Of a stretch of 64,000 nt of DNA, positions 8,337 through 64,000 are shown piece after piece (the stretch's first letter is position 1; each line of letters opens with the position of its first letter). A program made the position numbers and the translations under genes. A model generated the notes under the pieces. That model made no database searches, was not told the origin of the DNA, and saw only the letters and a list, made by a program, of their open reading frames with translations. The DNA lies in contig BPJL01000002.1 in NCBI GenBank assembly GCA_026004595.1, positions 1,431 through 65,430 on the forward strand, given 5' to 3'. The DNA comes from Patescibacteria group bacterium (GTDB taxonomy: Bacteria > Patescibacteriota > WWE3 > UBA101185 > UBA10185).

Positions 8337-8468
8337 ATGAAATCTGCTGCGCAACATGGTCGCTTGCGGCAGACGGAGCAAGTAGCGAAACCGGTCTCTC
8401 TGTTGAGGTCGGTTTTTTTATCAGAAGAGTTCTGGCCAACTTTTCTGATGCACCGTAAAAAATTATGA
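8337..8468 (+). CDS. Candidate 43-aa upstream ORF. Its TGA stop overlaps the ATG of the giant surface-protein gene (ATGA)
   Basis: ATG 8337, in-frame stop at 8466-8468. Encodes MKSAAQHGRLRQTEQVAKPVSLLRSVFLSEEFWPTFLMHRKKL and contains a hairpin plus T-run. Speculative. Confidence 0.2.
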   Translation: MKSAAQHGRLRQTEQVAKPVSLLRSVFLSEEFWPTFLMHRKKL

Positions 8469-11400
8469 AGCTTAAAAAAACGATAACAAGAATAGCAAAG
8501 CTCAAAATAAAAAAAGATACGCGTAAGAGAATTTATCTGAACATCGCAATACTGTCGATGTTACTAAACAGTTTTTATCCGTTCCTTGCTTCCTATCAGT
8601 ATGTGTATGCCGAAGACGAGAAAGCGGTTGTTGAGGAAACTTCTTCAAGTGAAGAAGACTCTGACAGCGCAGAGGAATCCAGCGCGCCGGAGGAGACGGC
8701 TTCAGAAGAAGCTGACACGACTGAAGAGCCAGCTCCAGCAACAGAAGAGACCGATCCCGTAGACACGACCGAGTCTACCGGTGAAGTGTTAGGAATCTCA
8801 ACAGAAGACCAGAATGCTACCGAAGGTACCGATAGTGCCGTGGGAACCGAAGGTATTGCCGAGACACAGCCCGTTGCTGATGAAGCTCAATTGCCGGATA
8901 TTTTGCCGGATGGGGTGAGTGATTCTAGACCGGTTGGGAGTGAGCCCGCGTCTGAAATTATTCCTGTTACTGATACTACCAATCAGGATTTAGATCAACT
9001 TTCAGTTTATAGGCTGTCACATGTCGCTGATGGATTAGGGTCATGTCCGATGACAGGAGCTATTTGGACGACGGATAGCAATTGTACGGTAACTAATCAA
9101 AATATTTACTTTAGCAAATCAGAAGTTTACTTAAATGGCGGACCAGCTGGGAACGGAGGAGGCCCCGGCCTTCCTGACGGGAATTACTATGTAAGGGTTA
9201 CAGATCCAAGTGGTAAAGCTATTCTTGGTGAAAGCAATGAGCCCTCGGTTACTGTATCCGGGGGGGTTTTCGGAGAGTGCTATAAGCTTCAGAATGTAGT
9301 AGGCTATGATAGTACTAGTGGGTTTAAAGATACAACTAATCCAGGTGGTGAGTATAAAGTGTGGGTTAGCCCGGACAAAAATTTTAAGGATTGTTCTAAA
9401 ACCGATAATTTCAAAGTTTTGGAAAAAGGGTTCTGTGGCGACGGCAACGTGAACGCCCAAAACGAACAGTGCGACGACGGAAATAGAGATAATAATGACT
9501 ACTGCAGCAATACATGTCAATTTAACTCCGTTTGTATTCCAGATGTAAATATGCTCGTTAATGGAGATTTTGAAACTCCGGAAGTAACTAGTCATTATAA
9601 ATGGGATATATTCAATATGTATTCGCCAATGTTAGGTTGGAATGTGGTATGGAACGGAGGAAGTGCTAGTTATAGCGGACAAACAAGGCCTGAACCTGCA
9701 TACCTTGAATTACACAGAGATGTAAACGGGTGGAGTTCAGCATCTGGTAGTCAGTACGCTGAACTAGACACCGATTGGGACGGTCCTGGGAATCCGTTGA
9801 ATAACGAGCCTGCAACGGTAGGAATCTCTCAGGAAATTCCTTTAATAGACGGATATAAGTACAAAGTCAAATTTTCATATTCTCCAAGACCGGGGACAGA
9901 TGCTTCGAACAATGTCATGGATTTCGCCTGGGATGGGACAACAGTCGATACCTATTCCGGCGCTGGTGGAGGCAACACCTCTTGGACACCGAAATCTTAT
10001 GAGTTCGTTGCGGGCAAGACCGCTATTACAAATGTAGCTTTTGTCGAAAAAGGCACAGCGGATTCACTTGGGATGTTCTTGGATAATGTTAGCGTTACCT
10101 GTTTGGGGCCTGAAATAATACCTAAATGTGGCGACGGGTTGTTGAACCAGACGACGGAGGAATGTGATGGAACTTCTGGTGTCACATTAGGCAAGAACTT
10201 CTGTACATACAATTGTAAACTGGTACCAATTTACGATGGCGCCCACACGTGTTCTGAGGGGAAATATCCGGTTGCTTATAGCGGGCCTTTCACAATATCT
10301 AGTACCGATGGTGATGGGATAACCATTCCTGTGGTAGGCGGGAAAGAATATCTGTTTAAAGTATCCGGCACTTTTGTTCCAACCGGAGCTTCTGGTTACA
10401 TCTCTGACGCGGGGTATACATTGATAAACGGAGTACTTGCAAATCAGTATGGGATAAAGGGAACACCCCCTGATTTAGGTACCCACGCTTTACTTGGAAA
10501 TTTTGGGGAGGGTGTGGGTATAGTTGATTGGGGTAACTACAACAGCGAGCATATTTATACCAAAGCCTATACATTTGATAATAATGATAATAATTACGAT
10601 ATTAACTTCTTGATAGGTGATAGATACGATAATTGGTTTAATACAGCTTGGAACAACCAGGATGGAATGAAGGATAATTCCGGGAATCTTTCCTTAACGG
10701 TTTACGAATGTGCCACCCCTGTTTGTGGAAACGGACAGCGCGAGTTTGGGGAAGAGTGCGACGGAACCGATGGAATCAAATCAGGAGAAAACTTCTGTAC
10801 ACCCACCTGCAAACTGATACCCCTTTATGATGGGGAACACATGTGTGCGCCAGGAACTACACCGGTAAAAGTTGGCGATACCTATGTCATAGATTCTAAA
10901 GATAGTGATGGGGTTACAGTACCTCTAATTGGTGGCCAGGAATATCTTTTCAAGGTTTCGGGAACATATAAATTCGGTGCCCCCAATGATAATCGAGTTG
11001 CTGATGCAGCTTATGGCTCAGAGAACTCTTGGACTTCGGTAAGAACCGATCTTGGCATTTGGGGGAGCTCGCTTCGTGGGGTACTTTCACTGCTAGGGAA
11101 TTTGGGAATGGGTATTGGTGTAATAGAGTGGGATAACGACTCAATATTTGATCAAGACCACGCGTATGAAAAGGTATTTACTCCAGCGAGTGATATGTCA
11201 GCCCAATTTTTAATTAGTGATTGGTATAGTAACTGGTACGAAAATACATGCAAGAACCAAAGCTGTATGAGCGACAACAAGGGCTCTCTGAGTTTAGAGG
11301 TGTATGAGTGTCAGCCCTCTTCGAATGTTACCGTCTGTAAGTACGATAGTAAAAATAAACCGCTTACGGGATGGAACGTTTCTCTTAAAGGTGATTTGGT

Positions 11401-13552
11401 GGGTACGTTGAATGTATTGCCTAATGGTTCTGACTATAACTCAGCCGGGTTGCCAGTTGGTGATTATGTCTTGGAGGCGAGCGGTTACTATACGTACAGA
11501 CCCGGAACTGCTGGTGCGGAGTATACAGATGCCAACTACTCAAAGAGACACCCTAGTGATCCTGTCTACGGGGGACCTTACATACCTTGGGTCAATGTAA
11601 ATTCTTTCCCGTCCCCACACACAGGTTGGTTAGGTGTGATGGTTAACGGGGCTCCTACAAACTGGAGTGATTATTATGCATCAGATCACAAATATTTGCT
11701 TGGATTTGAGAATTATAGTGGCCCCTTCTCCTTTAAGATATTGGACGATGTCTATACTGACAATAGCGGAAGTATAACAGTTAATATATATAAAGGTTAC
11801 GCTGGGGTTACCGGAGAAGATGGTTGTGTAACATTTAAGGATGTCCCATTAGGTGACTATAGACTAGATGAAACACTCAAAGATGGTTGGGTGAATTTGA
11901 ATGAAACGAGAGGGAAACGGGTCAGTGTTGATGGACAAGAAGATCGTTTTACCCTCGTAAATGAAGATTTAAGTGATGTGGGTTTAGATATTTCAAAGAC
12001 GAATCTTAACTGGCCTGATCAACTGCAGAGTGGAGATATAGTAACGTACCAGATAACTATAAGAGCAGTAGGAGGCCCGCTATTCGATGTATTTGTTGTT
12101 GACCTCCCGCCTACAGGATTTGTGCCCGGTAACTTTCAGACATCTGCAAGTATAGAAGGACTTCCAACTTATGCCTCGCCCGGTAAATGGCACATTGGTG
12201 ATATGGAAGAAGGAGATGAAATAGTTCTTACATACGATGCTGTGGTGGGTTCAGATGTTGATCCGGGTGTCTATCCTGATCTAGCGTGGGCTTATGGGAG
12301 TAACATAATTGGAGGTAAAATAATCGCAAATTCAAAAGAGAGTGGTTTTGCTGTTAATAATGGGATTGTAAACGAAACTTTTGTTGGTACGCAAGTCGAG
12401 GTGGTCAGGGAAAATGAGTCGCCAAAAGTTAAAACCGAAGTAGACGAAAAGACCGTTGAAGAAGGAGTACTTGGTGCTTCTACCGCAAGACTCCCTGCCA
12501 CCGGTCAAAATGTAGTAATACTAATTTCTGTCTTAGCGCTTATGCTTACAGGTACTCTAATAATGGCTCTGTCAAGGAAAAAGAAAATTCTGAAGATACT
12601 TCCGATACTTTTTCTTGCAGCAGCTCTATATGGTGGAATGGATAGCGTATTAGCAGCCAATCTTTCTGTACGAATTGAGGATCCAAAGTCTCCTGTTAAC
12701 AGCCCGTTCCAGGTAACATTTGTTGTACTCAATGCCGATCCTAACGAGGGCGATTTGCACTATCAGTGTTGGATAGATGGTCCCACAAGCGGCTGGGAAA
12801 AGTTGGGTAGTGAAGGTACCTTGCCTAACGAAGGAGGTACAGATGTCTGTGATGTTACAGAATCTGTGTTGACAAGCGACGGTTTATACAGCATTAAAGT
12901 TGTTGTTGAAGGGGTTGAGTCTGCTACGGTATCAACAACATACGACAACACCCCACCCAGCAAACCCAAATACATCGAAGTTGACAGAAAATCCGCCTGC
13001 AAATACGAAATAGAATTCAAAACAGCCAACGACGGCCAAACATCATACGTTGAAGTGTACATGTCAGATGATAAAGAATTCACAGCAGGCTCCGGAAGCA
13101 GGATAAGAACCATAACGATAGGCCCCGACCAAAAATACAAGTTTACCGAAGAAGTTGCTGGAGATAAATGCGCCCACAGACAATACTTTGCCGTTCGCGC
13201 CTTTGATTCCGCAGGCAACGGGTCAAAGGTTGAAGCCGAAGAAGTGACAGACATTGAATACAAGACAATATATAAAGAAGGGACCGAAGAAGTAACCCAA
13301 GAAGCCTACGCCGGAGGAGCGGCTTCATCTATTGGCGCAGGAGCGGGTGAAGAAGGCGCCGAAGTAGTTACGTCAGAAGAAGAAATGCCTAGCGAAGAAG
13401 GAAGCATTTTGGGTGAGCAGGCCCAAGCGGAAACCGGAGCCGAAAAAGGATTCTTTGGCAAACTCATCTCAAGCCCCTGGACATGGATAATACTAATCTT
13501 GGCGCTCGGAATAATAACGATAAATGGAATCAGAAAGAGCAAGAAAGAATAA
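8465..13552 (+). CDS. Giant secreted cell-surface protein (1695 aa as read). Signal peptide, acidic S/T/E/D-rich linker, three CGDG/CGNG...ECDDGN cysteine-rich repeats (Myxococcus-type), two ~245-aa tandem modules, DUF11/CARDB-like region, and an LPATG sorting signal at residues ~1343-1376. An extra ~320-aa C-terminal module with its own hydrophobic leader and C-terminal TM may be a separate gene
   Basis: Single long ORF. Signal peptide MKLKK...YVYA. Repeated CxDGxxNxxxEQCDDGN motifs at ~9430, ~10130 and ~10730. LPATG at 12491-12505, then hydrophobic stretch and SRKKK. A 1-nt change in the A5/A4 tract at 12578-12587 would end the protein as ...SRKRKF*. Confidence 0.7.
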   Translation: MKLKKTITRIAKLKIKKDTRKRIYLNIAILSMLLNSFYPFLASYQYVYAEDEKAVVEETSSSEEDSDSAEESSAPEETASEEADTTEEPAPATEETDPVDTTESTGEVLGISTEDQNATEGTDSAVGTEGIAETQPVADEAQLPDILPDGVSDSRPVGSEPASEIIPVTDTTNQDLDQLSVYRLSHVADGLGSCPMTGAIWTTDSNCTVTNQNIYFSKSEVYLNGGPAGNGGGPGLPDGNYYVRVTDPSGKAILGESNEPSVTVSGGVFGECYKLQNVVGYDSTSGFKDTTNPGGEYKVWVSPDKNFKDCSKTDNFKVLEKGFCGDGNVNAQNEQCDDGNRDNNDYCSNTCQFNSVCIPDVNMLVNGDFETPEVTSHYKWDIFNMYSPMLGWNVVWNGGSASYSGQTRPEPAYLELHRDVNGWSSASGSQYAELDTDWDGPGNPLNNEPATVGISQEIPLIDGYKYKVKFSYSPRPGTDASNNVMDFAWDGTTVDTYSGAGGGNTSWTPKSYEFVAGKTAITNVAFVEKGTADSLGMFLDNVSVTCLGPEIIPKCGDGLLNQTTEECDGTSGVTLGKNFCTYNCKLVPIYDGAHTCSEGKYPVAYSGPFTISSTDGDGITIPVVGGKEYLFKVSGTFVPTGASGYISDAGYTLINGVLANQYGIKGTPPDLGTHALLGNFGEGVGIVDWGNYNSEHIYTKAYTFDNNDNNYDINFLIGDRYDNWFNTAWNNQDGMKDNSGNLSLTVYECATPVCGNGQREFGEECDGTDGIKSGENFCTPTCKLIPLYDGEHMCAPGTTPVKVGDTYVIDSKDSDGVTVPLIGGQEYLFKVSGTYKFGAPNDNRVADAAYGSENSWTSVRTDLGIWGSSLRGVLSLLGNLGMGIGVIEWDNDSIFDQDHAYEKVFTPASDMSAQFLISDWYSNWYENTCKNQSCMSDNKGSLSLEVYECQPSSNVTVCKYDSKNKPLTGWNVSLKGDLVGTLNVLPNGSDYNSAGLPVGDYVLEASGYYTYRPGTAGAEYTDANYSKRHPSDPVYGGPYIPWVNVNSFPSPHTGWLGVMVNGAPTNWSDYYASDHKYLLGFENYSGPFSFKILDDVYTDNSGSITVNIYKGYAGVTGEDGCVTFKDVPLGDYRLDETLKDGWVNLNETRGKRVSVDGQEDRFTLVNEDLSDVGLDISKTNLNWPDQLQSGDIVTYQITIRAVGGPLFDVFVVDLPPTGFVPGNFQTSASIEGLPTYASPGKWHIGDMEEGDEIVLTYDAVVGSDVDPGVYPDLAWAYGSNIIGGKIIANSKESGFAVNNGIVNETFVGTQVEVVRENESPKVKTEVDEKTVEEGVLGASTARLPATGQNVVILISVLALMLTGTLIMALSRKKKILKILPILFLAAALYGGMDSVLAANLSVRIEDPKSPVNSPFQVTFVVLNADPNEGDLHYQCWIDGPTSGWEKLGSEGTLPNEGGTDVCDVTESVLTSDGLYSIKVVVEGVESATVSTTYDNTPPSKPKYIEVDRKSACKYEIEFKTANDGQTSYVEVYMSDDKEFTAGSGSRIRTITIGPDQKYKFTEEVAGDKCAHRQYFAVRAFDSAGNGSKVEAEEVTDIEYKTIYKEGTEEVTQEAYAGGAASSIGAGAGEEGAEVVTSEEEMPSEEGSILGEQAQAETGAEKGFFGKLISSPWTWIILILALGIITINGIRKSKKE

Positions 13553-14207
13553 CAAAAAGAAGAAAACCCAAGCCCAACGAGGCCCAGTCCTTTACAGACT
13601 GGGTCTTGCTTTTGTTGCCCTATCTTTCGCGGCCCTGGTGATAATTCTTTATCCCGCAATCTCAAACGAACTTAAATACCGCTTTAACCCGCCCAAAGCC
13701 GACGCCGAAGTTTTCATTACTCCTAATTCGCACACTGAAAAGCATTACATAGTTGCCGCCGACCCCTATTTAAGCATTGTGATACCCAAAATCGGAGCCA
13801 ACGCTAAGATAATAAAAGATGTTAATCCTCAAGACAGCAAATCTTACCAAAAAGCCCTTACTCAAGGGGTAGCCCACGCCCTAGGCACGGCTCTTCCCGG
13901 CCAAACAGGAAACGTTTTTCTTTTTGCCCACTCTTCCGACAACATAATAAACGCAAACAGATATAATTCGGTGTTTTACCTTTTGAATAAAATGGAAAAA
14001 GGCGATAAAGTTTATCTCATTTTCAACCGCAGAAAATTCACCTATACGGTTACCGATACGAGAATTGTATCTGCCGAAGACGTTTCATATATGCAACCCC
14101 AATCAGAAACGCCAAAAGTTACCTTGATGACATGCTGGCCCGCGGGTACGACTCTAAAACGCTTAATCGTAGTGGCAGAAATATTACCAGAACAACCTAA
14201 ACTCTAA
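13524..14207 (+). CDS. srt: Sortase (transpeptidase), membrane-anchored
   Basis: N-terminal TM. Catalytic signatures LFAHSS (His), LMTCWP (TLxTC Cys) and KRLIV (Arg). Overlaps the end of the LPATG protein gene by 29 nt. Confidence 0.8.
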   Translation: MESERARKNNKKKKTQAQRGPVLYRLGLAFVALSFAALVIILYPAISNELKYRFNPPKADAEVFITPNSHTEKHYIVAADPYLSIVIPKIGANAKIIKDVNPQDSKSYQKALTQGVAHALGTALPGQTGNVFLFAHSSDNIINANRYNSVFYLLNKMEKGDKVYLIFNRRKFTYTVTDTRIVSAEDVSYMQPQSETPKVTLMTCWPAGTTLKRLIVVAEILPEQPKL

Positions 14208-37263: not shown

Positions 37264-37299
37264 CACCTTTTTGCCGCGAGAGCTGATATAATTTACTTG

Positions 37300-38217
37300 A
37301 TGCTGAAAACCTGCCCTCAGTGTGGAAGAAATCTAACAAAAGCTGATAACTACTTTTGCCATGTTTGTGGAGCAGTTACAGGTGGAGGTGCGGCAAGATC
37401 TAATAAACGTTACTATTTGGGTTCCAAAACTTCTTTAAAAGATGGTGTTTCTTTTAGTTTATCGCCTTGGGGGTTTTTGGCAGGTGTTTGTGTTTTTATT
37501 TTATTGGTGGGTTCAGCTATTCTCTCATCTCGCATAGCCAGCAAGGCCGCGGATAGGGGAAGTTTAGTTATTTCAAACATGTTTTCTTCAAATAATTCTC
37601 CTGCCCCCCAACAGGTAAGTAAAAATGAAAAATCTTCGGTTCCGGACAGCTTCTCGCTCGCTTCTGACATTGAGAACTTTGTTCCATTTCAGACGGATTT
37701 TGTAGTCGTATTTTATTCCCATTTAGATTTTTTGGACGCTCTTAAATTTTTTAAGGTAGAAAATACGTTTGATGTGGATTTTCTCAAAAATCTAAACCGC
37801 CCTCCCTATGTGATAATTCTAACCCCGCCGGCGGGGGAAAATGAGGAGTTGAGAACAGCATTGCTGCTGTTTCCTGTTGAGAAACCGGCCGAGGGTGATT
37901 ATTCCAGATATGTTGATAAGGAATTTTCAGAAACAATTTTAGATAAAGCTGTTGTTTTGGCGAATGATCCTGGTGTTGCTGAAGAAATTACCCAAGTATC
38001 CAAAGGACTCCACAAGGGAATAGGGCTTAATTCATACTATATGAATATAAGACGTAAAATTCCGGAAAATGTGAGGTCAAAGATTTTTGTCTTTTCTAAT
38101 ATTGGTGTAGGATATGTTAACCAGCTTGATACCGACAAGATGCCGGAATCAGTAAAAATGCTGGTTATAAATTATATGAAATCCGGCAGTTATTACGGAT
38201 TTGTAGAATATGAATGA
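37300..38217 (+). CDS. Hypothetical membrane protein with an N-terminal zinc ribbon (CPQCG...CHVCG) and one TM
   Basis: ATG 37300 lies 7 nt after TGATATAAT (37284-37292). Overlaps the downstream Lon-like ATPase gene by 8 nt. Confidence 0.5.
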   Translation: MLKTCPQCGRNLTKADNYFCHVCGAVTGGGAARSNKRYYLGSKTSLKDGVSFSLSPWGFLAGVCVFILLVGSAILSSRIASKAADRGSLVISNMFSSNNSPAPQQVSKNEKSSVPDSFSLASDIENFVPFQTDFVVVFYSHLDFLDALKFFKVENTFDVDFLKNLNRPPYVIILTPPAGENEELRTALLLFPVEKPAEGDYSRYVDKEFSETILDKAVVLANDPGVAEEITQVSKGLHKGIGLNSYYMNIRRKIPENVRSKIFVFSNIGVGYVNQLDTDKMPESVKMLVINYMKSGSYYGFVEYE

Positions 38218-39283
38218 CGCGGCAGATAAAAAAGATTTTTTGTTCGATGAGCTTCGAACTCTAACCCAGAAGGTTAACGAAACCGAGGGAATCCCCGAGA
38301 TTTTAGCCGACCGCTTGAAGCAGATGATTCAGAGGCTTGATAGGATGGCGAACCTTGGCCACTACGCCACGGAGTACGATACATTGGCGAGGTACATCGG
38401 GATAGTTACATCAATTCCTTGGGTAAAGAAAACAGAGGACAGGATGGATTTACAGATAACAAAGCAGATTCTGGATGAGCATCACTACGGTATGGAGTAT
38501 GTAAAAGAGAGAATATTGGAGTATATGTCCACATTGATTTTGTTAAAGAAGAGAGGCAAAGAGGTACTACAAAGGGCGCCCATTTTGCTTCTTGTAGGGT
38601 TGCAGGGAGTTGGAAAGACAACTCTTGCTATGTCAATTGCCGAGGCTCTCCAGAGGAAATTTGTACGAATAGCTATGGGAGGGATCGGTTCAACATTAGA
38701 GATAAGAGGCAGGAGCAAGGCATTCCCTGAGTCGGAACCTGGGCTAATTATAAAAGCACTCATAAACGCCGGGGTAAAGAATCCTGTGATACTTCTTGAT
38801 GAAATTGAAAAGGCCAGTGGAGAGGCCGGTCTGCAGTCAGACATTATGGCAGTTCTATTGGAGATACTTGACCCCGCTCAAAATGTTGCCTTCAGGGACC
38901 ACTATATTGATTTTCCTGTTGATTTATCCGAAGTGATGTTCATTTGTTCCGCGAATAATCTTGGTCCCATATCAACCGCCCTTTTAGATAGGATGGAGGT
39001 AATTAAAATGCCTTCTTACAGCGATGCGGAAAAAATGGTAATTGCGCGTGATTACATACTCCCAAAGGTTATAGAAAATTCGGGTCTCAAGCCTGAGGAG
39101 TTAATAATTGACCCCAACTTGTGGCCAGGAATAATTAGGCCGTTTGGTTATGATTCGGGCATAAGAAGCTTAACCAGAACTTTAGAGTCAATATGTAGAA
39201 AGGTGGCAAGGGAAATTGTGGAGGGCAAAGTTGATAAAGTTTACCTCACTGCCGATAACCTAAAACACTATCTCCCAAAATAG
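38210..39283 (+). CDS. Lon-like AAA+ ATPase module lacking both the Lon N-terminal substrate domain and the S16 protease domain
   Basis: Aligns to the Lon helical-linker plus AAA+ region: SIPWVKKTEDRMDLQITKQILDEHHYGMEYVKERILEY, Walker A GLQGVGKTTL, Walker B ILLDEIEK. Ends where the Lon protease domain would begin. Confidence 0.7.
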   Translation: MNDAADKKDFLFDELRTLTQKVNETEGIPEILADRLKQMIQRLDRMANLGHYATEYDTLARYIGIVTSIPWVKKTEDRMDLQITKQILDEHHYGMEYVKERILEYMSTLILLKKRGKEVLQRAPILLLVGLQGVGKTTLAMSIAEALQRKFVRIAMGGIGSTLEIRGRSKAFPESEPGLIIKALINAGVKNPVILLDEIEKASGEAGLQSDIMAVLLEILDPAQNVAFRDHYIDFPVDLSEVMFICSANNLGPISTALLDRMEVIKMPSYSDAEKMVIARDYILPKVIENSGLKPEELIIDPNLWPGIIRPFGYDSGIRSLTRTLESICRKVAREIVEGKVDKVYLTADNLKHYLPK

Positions 39284-39284
39284 T

Positions 39285-39914
39285 ATGAACAAAGAAGAAA
39301 TGATGAGCAAAGTAACAGCGGCTATAAAAGCCTGCACTAAGTGCCGCTTGAGAAGAGGCGCTCTGAACGCTGTTCCTGGTGAAGGAAATATAAATAGTGA
39401 AATAGCATTTGTGGGGGAGGCGCCTGGACGGGTTGAAGATGAGACAGGAAGACCTTTTGTGGGAAGGGCAGGGATGTTGCTCGAGCAGTCTCTAAAGGAA
39501 ATAGGTTATAGCAGAAAAGATGTGTGGATAGGAAATATAGTAAAACACCGACCGCCCGAAAATCGCGATCCTTTGCCGGACGAAATAGACTCTTGCGAAC
39601 AATTTCTTGCGTACCAGCTTAAAATTATTTCTCCTCTCTTGGTTGTAGCTTTAGGAAGGTTTGCTCTGAATTATTTTTATCCACAGGGTAGAATAACTCT
39701 CGATAGAGGTACCCTTATCCAGACAAAGAATTATAAAATTTTTCCCGTTTACCATCCCGCCGCGGCTTTGAGGAATCCTGAGATGATGAGAGGATTTAAG
39801 GAAGATTTTGCAAAAATCCCCGAGGTATTGCATTTGGTAAAAAGAGGAGCTGAAGGAAACACGACTCAATCCGAAGGTCAAACTGATGATGGACAACTTG
39901 GGCTGGGTTTGTAA
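39285..39914 (+). CDS. Uracil-DNA glycosylase, family 4
   Basis: CxxC...GEGN...AFVGEAPG...GRPFVGRAG motifs typical of family 4 UDG. Confidence 0.8.
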   Translation: MNKEEMMSKVTAAIKACTKCRLRRGALNAVPGEGNINSEIAFVGEAPGRVEDETGRPFVGRAGMLLEQSLKEIGYSRKDVWIGNIVKHRPPENRDPLPDEIDSCEQFLAYQLKIISPLLVVALGRFALNYFYPQGRITLDRGTLIQTKNYKIFPVYHPAAALRNPEMMRGFKEDFAKIPEVLHLVKRGAEGNTTQSEGQTDDGQLGLGL

Positions 39915-47869: not shown

Positions 47870-48301
47870 TCAGACTCGGACAACCTTTTGTATTGTGAGT
47901 TGATGAAAAACGATACCTATTCCAAAACCCGCGCACCAGTATAGGAGAGGCAGCCCCGAAGCTTTTATTATGTAATGTGTCGGAAGGGAAAAAACGGCCT
48001 TCCCGACAATCTCTTTTTGTACAATTGGGTATGGATCTTCGTTTTGATTGTTGTCGCCTTTGGTTATGAAAAGGTCGTTCCTAATCTCAACTATTCTATG
48101 CGTTATGTATGTATTGTTTTTTTTGAATGCCGCTATGTCGCCAATCTTTAACCTGCGGGCGGGTATCACGATTACTATGTCGCCTTTCCGTATATAGGGT
48201 TCCATAGAATCACTTTTAACGTACAGTGTTTTTATCCCACCTACATACGCCGCTAGAATAACCAGTGCTATTAAAATTAGTGTGTAATACCTGCCCGTCA
48301 T
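47870..48301 (-). CDS. sipW: Signal peptidase I of the archaeal/ER type (S26B, SipW-like)
   Basis: 143 aa. N-terminal TM. SDSMEP serine box and THR histidine box; short, without the bacterial LepB box architecture. Confidence 0.75.
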   Translation of the reverse strand: MTGRYYTLILIALVILAAYVGGIKTLYVKSDSMEPYIRKGDIVIVIPARRLKIGDIAAFKKNNTYITHRIVEIRNDLFITKGDNNQNEDPYPIVQKEIVGKAVFSLPTHYIIKASGLPLLYWCAGFGIGIVFHQLTIQKVVRV

Positions 48302-56180: not shown

Positions 56181-56983
56181 ATGACTATTTTTCAAGCTCT
56201 AATGATGGGTATTGTGCAGGGGCTGACAGAGTTTATCCCCGTTTCGTCTTCGGGGCATCTTGTAATTTTTCCAAAGCTTTTAGGATGGGAAGATAGCGGC
56301 TTGGCTTTTGATACTGTGCTTCATATGGGAACTCTACTTGCTCTTCTCGTCTATTTTTCCAGTGATTTGAAAGGGTTTTTCTGTGTCTTTTGTGAAAGAT
56401 TTGAAAAAAAGGATTTAAAAGTATTGAGAGTGAAACCCGTTTTCTTTTTTGGCTTATTCTTGCAACACTTCCTGCGGGTCTTGCAGGTTTACTTCTTGAA
56501 AATTTTATTGAAAGCAAATTTAGGAGCATTTTGAGTGTTGCTGTTTTTCTTTTGCTGGGGTCGGTTCTTATGTATTTTGCGGATAGAAAGGTGGGGGGCA
56601 AAAATCTAAGACCTAGTTTGAAGAATATTTTTACCGTCGGTCTATTTCAATGTCTAGCGCTCTTTCCCGGGGTTTCAAGATCGGGGGCGACGATTTCGGG
56701 GGGGCTTTTTGTTGGTTTTGATCGGGAGCTCGCCGCGAGAATTTCCTTTCTTTTGTCTATACCTGTGATAGCCGTTGCGGGTCTTTTCCAACTGCCGGTT
56801 GCGCTTTTACAATTTTCCGGAGAAGATTTGGGGGTGTTGGCGGCTGGGTTTTTTTCTAGTGCAGCCGCGGGCTACTTTTCTGTATACGTGCTTTTGAAAT
56901 TCTTAAAAAAGAATAGCCTTAGATCTTTCATTATTTATCGAGTTGTGCTCGGTGTCTTTCTAATTTTATTGCATTATTCTTAA
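56181..56983 (+). CDS. uppP: Undecaprenyl-diphosphatase UppP/BacA, split by a frameshift in the A7 tract at 56404-56410
   Basis: First part [14 protein letters not shown]; second part ...[13 protein letters not shown]. Adding one A to the A7 run restores a single continuous reading frame. Confidence 0.75.
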
Positions 56984-57023
56984 GAAAAACTGTACAGCTT
57001 TCGGTGCTATAATCAACTTCGAT

Positions 57024-59574
57024 ATGTTTAAGTTTTTCGGCGATCCTAACGAGAAACAACTGAATAGGATTAGACCCATTGTTGCGGAGATCAATTCCTT
57101 GGAGGATTCTGTCCAAAAACTTTCTCAAGAAAAGATGAGAGAGAGAGTATTGGAGTGGAAGGCACAGCTTAGAGGTCTTGATTATGAAGAGCAAGAAAAG
57201 CTGATGAGAAAAAATCCTTCCCGAGGCCTTTGCCTTTGTCCGTGAGGCATCGGTTAGAACATTGGAAAAGAGGCACTTTGATGTGCAGTTAATGGCAGGT
57301 GTCGTTTTTACACGAGGGAAAAATTTCGGAACAGAAAACTGGAGAAGGAAAAACTTTGACCGCGACCCTACCTCTTTTTCTAAACTCCTTGACTGGGCGC
57401 GGGGTTCATTTGGTAACTCCCAATGATTATCTTGCACGCCACGGTGCTGGTTGGATGGGACCTATTTATGACTACCTTGATATAAGTGTTGGAGTAATTA
57501 TGCAAGAGAGGGCGTTTGTGTATGATAGTACATTCAAAGGAACTGAGTTTGAAGATATTTATGCTATTCATTTGAAAGAGGTTTCAAGGCAGGAAGCTTA
57601 TAAATGCGATGTTGTTTACGGAACTAATCATGAATTTTGGGTTTGACTACCTTCGGGATAACATGGTGTACAACCTTGAAGCTATGGTGCAGACAAATCC
57701 AAATGGAGAGTTTGGGGTTCATAATTTTGCGATAGTTGATGAAGTTGACTCTATATTAATAGATGTTGCTAGAACCCCCCCTTATTATTTCTTCTGCTGA
57801 TGCTAAACCATCTTCACGGTATTATGATGCTGATCGCATTGTTAAAACTCTCGCCAAGGGTATTGACTACGAAGTTGAAGAAAAATTCAGAAACGTCACT
57901 TTAACAGATTTAGGAATAAGACGAGTTGAGAGGCTTTTGGGGGTTGAGAATCTATACGAACAGGATTTTGAAATGGTCCATTTGATAGAAGAGGCTCTCA
58001 CAGCTCATGCTTTATATGAAAAAGATAGAGATTATGTGGTGAAAGACGGAAAGGTAATTATAGTTGATCAATTCACAGGAAGACTTCTGCCAAACAACAG
58101 GTTTTCCCACGGATTACACCAGGCTATTGAGGCAAAAGAAGGTGTAGAGATTCAACAAGAATCCAAAACTTTAGCTGAAATTTCCTATCAAAATTATTTT
58201 AGAATGTACAAGAAACTGGCGGGCATGACAGGTACGGCAGCTACCGAAGCTGAAGAGTTTTACAAAATCTATAAGCTGGAGGTTGTAGTTATCCCAACCA
58301 ACAAGCCGAATATAAGAAAAGATCATAACGATGTGATTTACAAAACGGAAAGCGCGAAGTTTAAGGCTGTAGCTGATGATATTGCTGAGAGGCATGCTAG
58401 GGGCCAGCCAGTTCTTGTTGGAACAACTTCTGTGGAGAAAAGTGAACAATTGCACGCACTGTTGGTAAGAAGGAAGATACCCCACGAAGTATTAAATGCA
58501 AAAAACCACGAAAAGGAAGCTTTGATAATAGCTCAAGCAGGGAGAAAAGGTGCTGTGACAATTTCAACAAACATGGCTGGACGAGGGGTCGATATTGTTT
58601 TGGGTGGAGATCCTCCAGACGAAGAGCAGCAGAAAGAAGTGTTGGAAAAAGGCGGATTGTATGTTATAGGCACCGAACGCCACGAGTCGAGGAGAATAGA
58701 TAATCAGTTGAGAGGTCGGGCAGGAAGGCAGGGGGATCCTGGCGAAACCAGATTTTATGTCTCATTGCAGGACGATCTAATGAGAGTTTTCGGTGGCGAA
58801 CAGGTGAGCAGGCTGATGGATCGCTTTGGTATCGATGAGACTATTCCACTTGAGGCCGGACTTGTTACCAGATCAATTGAAAGTGCCCAGAAAAAAGTTG
58901 AAGGCTTTAACTTTGACAGAAGGAAAAATGTTGTGGAAATGGACGACGTTATTAACGTTCATCGCGAGGTTATTTACAAACTGAGAAGAAGAATTTTGGA
59001 ATTAGGAGCGGGGATCACGACCAATAAAGAATGGATAATTGGCAAATTATCTTCAATGTCAGTATTGAGCTCGGAGTTGTGGGAGCAAAAAGAAAGAGAA
59101 TTTGGGGAGGAAACTTGGTATAAGATCGTTTCGGATTGGAGCCTTAGGGTGATAGATAATTTCTGGATGGATCACCTGGTTGATATGGATCAAGTTCGGG
59201 AAGGAATAGGTTTAAGGGGCTATGCTCAGAGAGATCCAATGGTTGAATACAAAAAGGAAGGGCACGAGAGATTTGAAATTTTGTTGGCAAGAATTTATTC
59301 AACAATAGGTGAGCGCCTTGAAAAGGCAACGACAGATTCTGTAGTAAGAGTATCTCCTTCAGAGAGCCAGCTTTTGGCCAGAGCAAACTACCTTCACGGT
59401 GATTTTGAAAGCGGTGTCAGAGACGAGATGGGTCAGGCTTCTCCTCGTTTTGTTGATCCTTTGGGAAGAGTTGTTAAAGTTCAAGCTGTAACTTCCGGCA
59501 AAGAAAAAGTGGGAAGAAACGACCCGTGCCCATGTGGTAGCGGGAAGAAGTATAAGAATTGCCATGGAAGATAA
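57024..59574 (+). CDS. secA: Preprotein translocase ATPase SecA, interrupted by four +1 homopolymer frameshifts in its first ~760 nt
   Basis: Pieces at 57024, 57299, 57609 and 57763 align consecutively to SecA ([58 protein letters not shown]-terminal [14 protein letters not shown] zinc finger). Shifts lie in A6 (57209-14), T5 (57305-09), T4 (57635-38) and C7 (57775-81). TGCTATAAT sits 10 nt upstream of the ATG. Confidence 0.85.
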
Positions 59575-62001: not shown

Positions 62002-64000
62002 ATGAGAGAAACTTTTTCTAAACGTAAAATAGCTCTAAATTTACCAAACTTAGCTGATATTCAATTAAATTCGTACAACTGGCTCAAAACTGAGGGACTA
62101 AAAGAGATACTTGAGGAATTGGGCACAGTAAGAGGATAGTTCGGGAAGGAGGGTGGGTGGTCACACTTTCTGATCCGCAGATTGACAAAGAGAATATATC
62201 CATTCAGGAAGCTAAAAGAACGGGAAGAACTTATGATGCTCCTTGGTATGGTGAAGGCAACGATAGAAGATCCCATAACAAAAAATAAGAAAACAGCCAA
62301 TATTTATATGGGCGATTTGCCTCTTATGACAGAGAGGGAACCTTTATTATAAGCGGTGTTGAGAGGACTATTGTTAATCAGCTCATAAGGGCGGAAGGTG
62401 TTCTCTTACGGGAGAGACCTCTCCAATTACAGGCCAGTTTCTTGCAGGAGCTAAGATACTGCCCAAAAGCGGAGTTTGGCTTGAGTTTGAAACCTCCAGA
62501 AACGGAGTTCTCAGCGTAAGGATAGATAGAAAAAGAAAAATCTCTGCGACGACCTTATTGAGAGTGTTCGGACTCGAAGAAGACGAAGATATAAGGAAGG
62601 CATTTGAGAGTGTTGAGACGAACCCCGAAATAAATTACACAAATGAAACCCTGGCAAAAGATCCTGCCGCAAGTTTCGAGGAGGCTTGTTTGGAAATATA
62701 TAGAAAAATGAGGCCCGGGGAGCCGCTCGTGCTGGAAAACGCCAAGGCGCTTGTGAATGCAATGTTTTTCAACAAGAGAAGGTTCAGTATGGGGCCATGT
62801 CGGAAGATTTAAGCTGAATAAATCTCTCGGATTGAATATCCCCAATGATCCTGACCACAGGCTTTTAACCTTGGAGGATTTAATAAAGATAGTTTCAAAA
62901 ATAATAGAGCTCAATAATGAGTCGGGGTGCCGGATGATGTGGACTTTTTGGGTAATAGAAGAGTCAAAAGTGTAGGTGAGTTGCTCCAGTGGCAAATGAG
63001 GATAGGTTTTTTGAGAATGGAGAAGAACATTAAAGAAAGGATGTCTCTTTCTCCGAGAGACATATTGCCCGATCCTTCTGTTTTGATTTCTCCCCGAGCT
63101 ATAGCAGCCGCTGTCCACAGCTTTTTTGCCACCGGGCAATTATCACAGCTTCACGATCAACAAAAATCCGCTAACCGCCCTTGACCATTTGCGAAGACTC
63201 TCGGTTTTGGGTCCGGGTGGTTTAACTAAGGAAAGGGCCAGCTTTTCAGTTAGAGATGTTCATTACAGTTCATTTGGTCGAGTTTGTCCAGTCAGAACGC
63301 CGGAAGGTCCAAATATCGGTCTTATAAATTATCTTGCCTCCTATGCAAAAGTTAATGAATATGGGTTTTTGGAAACCCCATATATAAAACTAGAGAAAAC
63401 TCCTAATGGTGAGGTCAGACTTACGGACCAAATTGTTTACCTTGCCGCTTACGACGAGGAAGATGTACATATTACCGACCAGTCTGTTAGCATAAATGGA
63501 AGAGGGAATAATAATCGACAAACAGGTTCCGTTAAGAAAGGCCGGTAACTTCTTTTTAGGGGATGTATCCTTGGCGCAATACATTGAGGTTGTTCCGAGA
63601 CAGGTTGTGGGTATTGCCGCCGGTCTTATACCTTTTTTGCAAAATAATGATATAGCGCGCGCTTTGATGGGAACTCAGCAAATGTCTCAAGCAGTTCCCC
63701 TGGTTAAGCCCGAGAAGCCTATTGTCGGAACAGGAATAGAGAAAGATATAGCTTACAATACCAACGCTCTCATCGTAGCAGAGGACGATGGATTTGTTGA
63801 ATTTGCTGATGCTACAAAAGTGGTGGTTAATTATGGCAAGGGCGGAAGAAATCAAAAGTTGAGTATAAGGCAGCGAAATTTGAACAAACAAACAGCGACA
63901 CTTGTTTTAATCAATATGTAGTTGTTGAAACAGGGCAAAAAGTCAAGAAGGGGCGATGTTCTTGTGGAAGGCCCCGCCGTCAATGAAGGTGAGCTCGCCA
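62002..64000 (+). CDS. rpoB: DNA-directed RNA polymerase subunit beta, N-terminal ~660 codons, runs off the window end; heavily frameshifted
   Basis: [28 protein letters not shown] at the N-terminus. Later pieces in shifting frames match rpoB ([69 protein letters not shown]). Confidence 0.8.

Follow-up and report, generated by a model that had tools for sequence, protein, structure and literature searches.

The DNA analysed here is a 64-kb window of contig BPJL01000002.1, from a Patescibacteria group bacterium of the WWE3 lineage. In the middle of the window, that is, of this whole 64-kb stretch, lies a gene encoding a 357-amino-acid-residue protein that resembles the ATPase part of the protease Lon. 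As shown in Table 1, the Lon-like gene is preceded by a gene for a zinc-ribbon protein with a single transmembrane (TM) helix, here named ZnR-TM, and is followed by a gene for a family-4 uracil-DNA glycosylase (UDG). The start codon of the ZnR-TM gene is the ATG at 37300, and a TTG is present at 37297. The original prediction for this locus had reported an 8-nt overlap between the first two genes, a CxxC...CxxC zinc ribbon with one TM helix in the upstream product, and a UDG gene with no adjacent protease partner downstream. The overlap ATGAATGA, the CPQC...CHVC motif with a single hydrophobic helix and the family-4 UDG gene from 39285 all agree with that description.

Table 1. Features of the Lon-like locus and other genes of the window (positions are those of the window).
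Feature	Position	Strand	Remarks
ZnR-TM gene, 305 aa	37300..38217	+	Zinc-ribbon, single-TM protein with fast-evolving C-terminal domain; WWE3-specific upstream neighbour
Zinc ribbon CPQC-x11-CHVC (residues 5-23)	37312..37368	+	C5, P6, C8, C20 and C23 invariant in 32 family members
Single predicted TM helix (~W57-S77)	37468..37530	+
Overlap of ZnR-TM and Lon-like genes, 8 nt	38210..38217	+	ATGAATGA
Gene for LonA-type AAA+ ATPase, 357 aa	38210..39283	+	No protease and no N-domain; three-helix bundle, AAA+ alpha/beta domain and Lon lid
N-terminal three-helix bundle (residues ~3-68)	38216..38413	+	AlphaFold2 helices H3-24, H30-49 and H53-68; aligns to Lon residues ~244-310
Walker A, GLQGVGKTT	38597..38623	+	K136 invariant; clade-specific G[LIV]QG replaces GPPG of the compared canonical Lons
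Pore loop 1	38705..38743	+	RGRSKAFPESEPG; canonical Lon, RGHRRTY(V/I)GA(L/M)PG
Walker B, ILLDEIEK	38789..38812	+	D197 and E198 invariant; followed by pore loop 2 with clade-specific 2-residue insertion
Sensor-1 N249 and arginine finger R261	38954..38992	+	Both invariant
Lon-type AAA+ lid (PF22667)	39074..39232	+	Contains invariant sensor-2 R319 (39164-39166)
Conserved C-terminal end ...NLK(Y/H)YLP(K/Q)-stop	39251..39283	+	Point where the S16 protease domain begins in LonA
Family-4 UDG gene	39285..39914	+	Assigned by Pfam/NCBIfam; starts 1 nt past the TAG stop of the Lon-like gene
ClpB/ClpC-like double-ring Hsp100, 855 aa	45290-47857	-
LexA-like S24 peptidase-domain protein	47870-48301	-	Adjoins Hsp100

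Pfam gave two domains above cutoffs in the 357-aa protein, AAA (PF00004, residues 126-265) and Lon_lid (PF22667, residues 289-341), and neither Lon_C (PF05362) nor LON_substr_bdg. Residues 15-342 aligned to positions 254-570 of the 795-position NCBIfam model of endopeptidase La (TIGR00763, E = 3e-101), with a score of 340.3 bits that is below the equivalog cutoff of 608.05. The E. coli-type Lon model NF008053 was covered from position 248 to 579 of 784, with 265.6 bits against a cutoff of 891. Aligned by phmmer to B. subtilis Lon 3M6A (E = 6e-77), the protein matches through all the ATPase motifs up to the last residues of the lid, where the alignment stops. In the AlphaFold2 model of the protein (pLDDT 70.5), three helices at the N-terminus are followed by an alpha/beta domain and then by a helical lid. 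When this model was compared with the PDB by Foldseek, each of the best 50 matches was a LonA structure, among them 6N2I, the isolated AAA+ fragment of the E. coli protein. The three-helix bundle is equivalent to the C-terminal part of the HI(CC)/NTD3H region of LonA (PMC6722904). These results bear out the original prediction, which had placed the alignment to Lon from the helical linker through the AAA+ domain only, had recognised the Walker A and Walker B motifs, had put the end of the protein where the S16 protease domain would start, and had proposed Pfam as a check that Lon_C is absent. Judged by its sequence, the protein is truly a LonA-type AAA+ module that stands alone, with a full set of catalytic residues and with neither protease nor N-domain.

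The same short form was found in many relatives. Among the clusters listed in a large-database search, at least 120 are of the WWE3 type, with 68-98% identity, a length of 353-382 aa and only the AAA and Lon_lid domains; their sources are candidate division WWE3 and unclassified Patescibacteria. When species-representative genomes were scanned, 55 loci with the short form were obtained, including those of the complete genomes CP006914.1 (RAAC2_WWE3_1) and MEWB01000001.1. With a profile of more distant short forms, more than 100 additional clusters of 340-456 aa were obtained, likewise with AAA and Lon_lid only and many of them named Candidatus (Ca.) Dojkabacteria, so that the protease-less architecture is common to more than 200 protein clusters of WWE3 and Ca. 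Dojkabacteria. K136, D197/E198, N249, R261 and R319 are invariant over 129 WWE3-type and 114 Dojkabacteria-type sequences, and the C-terminus falls in the same alignment column in 121 of the 129 WWE3-type sequences. The Dojkabacteria-type homologues (P0312-P0426) run ~6 residues past the WWE3 end and close with a conserved tail, ...P(E)(G/D)(I/M)G(T/V)LS-COOH. Public records label the family 'Lon protease' or 'AAA family ATPase'.

A neighbour-joining tree was made from 319 shared columns of 45 protease-less sequences and 33 protease-bearing Lons. The bipartition between the two groups appeared in 60 of 60 bootstraps. The identity between the WWE3 and Dojkabacteria proteins is 0.54, against 0.39-0.40 to full-length canonical Lons, and the nearest canonical Lons with a named source are scattered over unrelated lineages (Clostridiales, Mesoplasma, Marinamargulisbacteria and a yeast). 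The simplest reading of these relationships would be that both flanking domains were lost once, long ago, and that purifying selection has since kept the remaining module for a long time. Many metagenome-assembled genomes of the binchicken / SRP..._co series that are labelled 'Candidatus Saccharibacteria' (L013, L015, L016 and other loci) have the syntenic block of the WWE3 type; their Lon-like proteins are 63-78% identical, and the label is probably a taxonomic mislabel of WWE3-related genomes.

Profiles of Lon_C and Lon_N were built from 20 full-length Lons, and as a control they matched 24 of 24 full-length Lon loci at ~1e-80 and ~1e-65, respectively. A six-frame tblastn and profile hidden Markov model (HMM) search of the whole window found no Lon_C or Lon_N (best HMM E-values 2 and 0.046). 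The sole marginal tblastn match (E ~0.03) was considered as a protease remnant and rejected as a chance match, because it lies inside the gene of ribosomal protein S13. A protease remnant frameshifted or displaced downstream was likewise rejected, as nothing was found in any of the six frames of the window. The original prediction had named an in-frame or frameshifted protease segment, or a truncated assembly, as the results that would overturn it, and it had kept open a 'decayed Lon'. That the gene is a non-functional remnant, either a decaying lon pseudogene or an assembly or frameshift artefact that removed the protease domain, is exceedingly improbable. The last ~8 kb of the window do contain fragmented uppP, secA and probably rpoB genes, so the assembly is not free of sequence errors. 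However, the Lon-like gene lies in the middle of the window and ends in a clean stop, its length and stop position recur in the 121 of 129 relatives mentioned above and in both complete genomes, its catalytic residues are invariant across two classes within one clade of more than 200 clusters, the ATPase is ~86% identical in the closest relatives where its neighbour is ~50% identical, and there is no trace of Lon_C downstream. Both the decayed Lon and the truncated locus were therefore rejected.

The search was extended to related loci. No Lon protease or N-domain lay near the gene in about 70 of them, with 5-10 kb of flank. No protease was found in the 55 short-form loci, with up to 10 kb per side where the contig allowed, and no peptidase gene in 8 Dojkabacteria contexts or in 8 loci selected by the ZnR-TM partner. 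Neither a Lon_C-like sequence nor a peptidase gene was thus detected within 5-10 kb across at least five distinct gene contexts. Among distant relatives no fusion ('Rosetta stone') of the Lon-like ATPase with a ZnR-TM protein or a peptidase was found; N- and C-terminal extensions in these relatives are low-complexity tails rich in P, Q and S. One protein of the representative library (P0182) is a protease-less Lon AAA+ with a C-terminal VIT (vault inter-alpha-trypsin) domain in the place of the protease domain.

These negative results bear on the main rival explanation, a split two-component Lon in which the AAA+ ring docks in trans on a separately encoded peptidase (S16 Lon_C or other) and still works as an ATP-dependent protease. 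ClpXP and HslUV as a rule have their ATPase and their peptidase encoded separately, and the conserved extreme C-termini, YLP(K/Q)-COOH in WWE3 and GxLS-COOH in Dojkabacteria, could be docking tails; F or Y is kept in pore loop 1 of 103 of the 129 WWE3-type sequences, which is compatible with translocation. Against this stands the lack of any Lon_C or peptidase gene in the flanks of the loci just described. In addition, the C-terminal residues of the WWE3 proteins align with the last element of the LonA lid, so their conservation needs no docking role, and the pore-loop aromatic is often lost in the Dojkabacteria-type proteins. We regard a split Lon as unlikely.

Pore loop 1 of the WWE3 proteins reads G(R/K)SKAFPE(A/S)EPG, against GHRRTY(V/I)GA(L/M)PG in canonical Lon. 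At its aromatic position the WWE3-type sequences have F in 96, L in 18 and Y in 7 of 129, followed by a proline and with glutamates on the flanks. The canonical aromatic position of the Dojkabacteria-type sequences is occupied by S in 37, Y in 25, F in 21 and E in 12 of 114, with a Tyr one residue earlier in 32, and some distant representatives have Q, E, H or S there. The 2-residue insertion in pore loop 2 is common to both types. In its altered form pore loop 1 is more acidic, which suggests that the client, the grip or the mode of substrate contact has changed.

Members of the ZnR-TM family carry a CPxC-x11-(Y/F)FCxxC ribbon at the N-terminus, then a single hydrophobic helix and ~220 aa of C-terminal region. 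K and R residues number 3.5 before and 2.3 after the TM helix, a weak indication of a cytoplasmic zinc ribbon and an external C-terminal domain. Because the cytoplasmic segment is then short (ribbon and linker, ~55 aa), the N-terminus would be the sole part of ZnR-TM able to reach the ATPase. The zinc ribbon itself is a prediction: Pfam gave Zn_Ribbon_TF in 15 and Zn_Ribbon_1 in 9 of 32 homologues taken from fetched loci (best E = 1.4e-5), and the protein of the window had weak zinc-ribbon matches under the gathering scores. A profile of the 32 sequences had no significant match in the PDB (best E = 0.078) and nothing beyond zinc ribbons in Pfam; DUF3352 matched weakly in two family members. 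An anti-sigma factor was considered and rejected by inspection, as the ribbon is of ~25 aa, there is no HxxxCxxC ZAS motif and no sigma factor gene adjoins. The 32 homologues have an overall identity of 13-20%, in contrast to 57-88% for the Lon-like proteins of the same genomes.

With a family HMM, 45 of 58 informative loci were found to have the ZnR-TM gene directly 5′ of the ATPase gene, and in most related loci examined the gap between the two is -35 to +37 nt. In a reciprocal metagenome scan with an alignment of seven close ZnR-TM sequences, the ATPase gene came next in all seven partner-selected loci with downstream sequence. A scan for promoters and terminators gave counts at background (16 against 17.2 expected, and 10 against 9.1). 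An extended -10-like TGaTATAAT was seen by eye at 37284-37292, 7 nt 5′ of the ATG at 37300 and inside the 36-nt gap after pnp; it was not called by the consensus scan because no -35 lies at 16-18 nt. It would imply a leaderless or nearly leaderless transcript beginning at the ZnR-TM gene.

The Lon-like gene of the WWE3-type loci belongs to the block infB-rpsO-pnp-[ZnR]-lonAAA-[nudix]-udg-rnj-ftsK. The most persistent downstream neighbour is the family-4 UDG gene, which is found at a distance of up to 1 kb in 49 of 61 loci, frequently separated from the Lon-like gene by a NUDIX gene; it is kept also in a locus with a rearranged upstream context (L087). In Dojkabacteria the ATPase gene (X) occurs in at least four contexts, namely pnp-X-udg, VIT1-X-udg, thyX-dcd-unknown-X and yidC-jag-rplY-X (L088), and in one subclade (L086, L098-L100) it stands just after folD-glyA-thyX-dcd. 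A uracil/thymidylate theme thus recurs, with UDG, with or without NUDIX, next to the Lon-like gene (window 39285-39914; L085, L087, L097), and this may be inherited synteny only.

These neighbours raise a minor rival explanation, in which the Lon AAA+ module acts on DNA or nucleoprotein in connection with uracil or thymidylate handling and not in general proteostasis. The lid domain binds DNA in some LonA proteins, and in the PDB entry 6N2I the depositors' name for E. coli Lon is 'DNA-binding ATP-dependent protease La'. The persistence of UDG, often with NUDIX and even in the rearranged locus, and the folD-glyA-thyX-dcd context agree with such a role. However, inheritance of one syntenic block explains the UDG adjacency, the thyX-dcd context is a single relocation event, and the yidC-jag-rplY context is without such genes. 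A nucleic-acid role is thus improbable.

The likeness to LonA (endopeptidase La of E. coli, B. subtilis and Meiothermus taiwanensis; MEROPS S16) extends over the whole 357-aa protein at 39-44% identity, and takes in the three-helix bundle, the AAA+ alpha/beta domain, the Lon-type lid and the Walker A/B, sensor-1, arginine-finger and sensor-2 residues. Unlike LonA, the WWE3 protein has no N-terminal substrate-binding domain, no long coiled-coil helix and none of the Ser-Lys protease domain. It also has GLQG and not GPPG, SKAFPE(A/S)EPG and not HRRTY(V/I)GA(L/M)PG, and a pore loop 2 longer by two residues. The domain content of E. coli Lon(235-584) (PDB 6N2I) is near-identical, comprising the C-terminal HI(CC), NB and H (Foldseek target-normalised TM-score 0.65). 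That protein is a laboratory fragment obtained by proteolysis of the full protease, whereas the WWE3 protein is natural, conserved and separately encoded, with signatures of its own.

Another natural uncoupling of the two Lon activities is LonC of Meiothermus taiwanensis, described as a 'Lon-like protease with no ATP-powered unfolding activity' (PMC3391209), for which a chaperone-like function is reported (PMC13069640). LonC is the mirror image of the WWE3 protein: its protease is kept and its ATPase is dead, whereas the WWE3 protein, by its conserved residues, seems to have a live ATPase and has no protease. In HslUV and ClpXP of the HCLR clade the ATPase is likewise a polypeptide separate from any peptidase, but their peptidase gene is known and usually adjacent, and none adjoins the Lon-like gene. 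The same clade includes the ClpB/Hsp104 disaggregases, AAA+ remodellers without a protease, and the HI(CC) and AAA+ region of LonA is structurally related to ClpB (PMC6722904). ClpB differs in having two AAA+ rings and an M-domain, and the window holds a separate ClpB/ClpC-like gene. If ZnR-TM tethers the WWE3 ATPase, archaeal LonB would be an analogous Lon-type ATPase at the membrane; LonB, in contrast, is anchored by TM helices within its own AAA+ domain and keeps its protease domain.

The explanation that we favour, to which we give about an even chance, is that the 357-aa protein is a protease-free, ring-forming ATPase derived from LonA, a remodeller or chaperone kept since the ancestor of WWE3 and Dojkabacteria. 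The N-terminal substrate-binding domain and the S16 protease domain would have been lost in the common ancestor of WWE3 and Ca. Dojkabacteria, and strong purifying selection would have kept the ATPase ever since. The protein would hydrolyse ATP, as its motifs predict. The invariant arginine finger implies catalysis across subunit interfaces and hence an oligomer, probably a Lon-like hexameric ring, for which 6N2I is a precedent: the E. coli Lon(235-584) fragment binds ADP, and in the crystal its subunits are arranged in an open ring of six (PMC6722904). By analogy with ClpB/Hsp104 or with what has been reported for proteolytically inactive Lon, client proteins may be remodelled or held without degradation. 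Rep et al. (Science 1996), for instance, reportedly found that proteolytically inactive yeast Lon (Pim1) still supports the assembly of mitochondrial membrane complexes. The chaperone-like function reported for LonC agrees with such a role as well. In the least certain step, the WWE3 ZnR-TM may be a membrane tether, an adaptor or a client of the ATPase. A bolder and less probable form of this explanation is put forward tentatively: WWE3 and Dojkabacteria would have given up Lon proteolysis entirely, and the motor would be a dedicated protease-free, ATP-dependent chaperone or remodeller, tethered in WWE3 to the membrane via the cytoplasmic zinc ribbon of a fast-evolving surface-exposed protein.

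Several points weigh against the favoured explanation or against the part given in it to ZnR-TM. An aromatic residue stands at the canonical position of pore loop 1 in only 46 of the 114 Dojkabacteria-type sequences, and because this loop is remodelled, threading of polypeptide is uncertain. Hexamers of Lon normally owe their stability to the protease ring, so that assembly of a protease-less ring can only be inferred. AlphaFold2 with 10 sequences gave an unusable model of ZnR-TM (pLDDT 45). The ZnR-TM gene is absent from 13 of the 58 loci, about a fifth of the WWE3-type (e.g. L002/L003, L028, L041 and L055), and was found in 0 of 8 Dojkabacteria contexts examined, so its role cannot be the core function of the clade. 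The block that contains both genes is syntenic, and overlaps of 4-8 nt also connect unrelated genes of the window; the adjacency is for these reasons weak evidence of an interaction. Of the 41 same-strand neighbour pairs in the window 6 overlap, SecF and RecJ, which are unrelated, among them, and the median gap is 17 nt.

The original prediction had taken the overlap as translational coupling. The genes do abut with an 8-nt overlap, but the overlap counts for less against the frequency of overlaps in the window. Of the conservation of the gene pair, which it had proposed as a check, the WWE3 part held (45 of 58 loci and 7 of 7 in the reciprocal scan) and the Dojkabacteria part did not (missing in 8 of 8). 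Its 'membrane-recruited unfoldase' is weakly favoured by the ZnR-TM adjacency and disfavoured by the absence in Dojkabacteria, the syntenic block, the other overlaps and the remodelled pore loop 1. ZnR-TM is probably at most a lineage-specific accessory in WWE3, because it is absent in Dojkabacteria, evolves fast and lies within a rigidly syntenic housekeeping block.

Lon is the textbook AAA+ protease with motor and peptidase fused in one chain. An independent physiological role of its motor, in chaperone action, complex assembly or DNA binding, has been argued mainly from engineered protease-dead mutants. The present family is a natural experiment in which the protease was deleted and the ATPase has stayed under strong selection across two classes of candidate phyla radiation (CPR) bacteria with reduced genomes, and it provides a test case for the function of the Lon motor without protease. 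If it is a protease-free Lon motor, it would be the first 'Lon ATPase only' machine of natural origin and long persistence, and would give direct evidence from evolution that the Lon motor has a selectable function apart from degradation. The family also offers a compact 350-aa construct for biochemistry and cryo-EM, and bears on the organisation of proteostasis in CPR bacteria with ~0.8 Mb genomes. The label 'Lon protease' misdescribes a protein without a protease domain. According to a recent review, all Lons contain both ATPase and protease domains (PMC9569914). Full-text literature searches returned no description of a protease-less Lon in CPR bacteria, and the main text of the RAAC2 WWE3 genome paper does not discuss Lon.

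The window is otherwise ordinary CPR housekeeping DNA, with genes for aminoacyl-tRNA synthetases, SecDF, RecJ, RecA/RecX, RNase Y, NusA, IF-2, PNPase, RNase J, FtsK, ribosomal proteins, a ClpB/C-like Hsp100 and a DnaJ-like protein. Because of the Hsp100 gene, the organism has AAA+ chaperones besides the Lon-like protein. An anti-phage defence system was considered and rejected in view of this context, since PADLOC returned only generic AAA similarity (best E = 9e-8, DolB); it gave no match for ZnR-TM or UDG. Toward the end of the window several essential genes are broken into short pieces that lie in different frames: uppP/BacA into 56181-56534 and 56531-56983, and secA into 57024-57245, 57299-57646, 57609-57800 and 57763-59574. 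The short open reading frames (ORFs) 63126-63548 and 63496-63921 suggest a fragmented rpoB, with rpoB Pfam matches in the first only. These breaks (56181-59574 and 63126-63921) look like assembly indel errors or pseudogenisation. In the region 8465-14207 of the window, a 1695-aa ORF without Pfam match overlaps the downstream sortase gene (13524-14207) by 29 nt, and possibly encodes a giant sortase-anchored surface protein.

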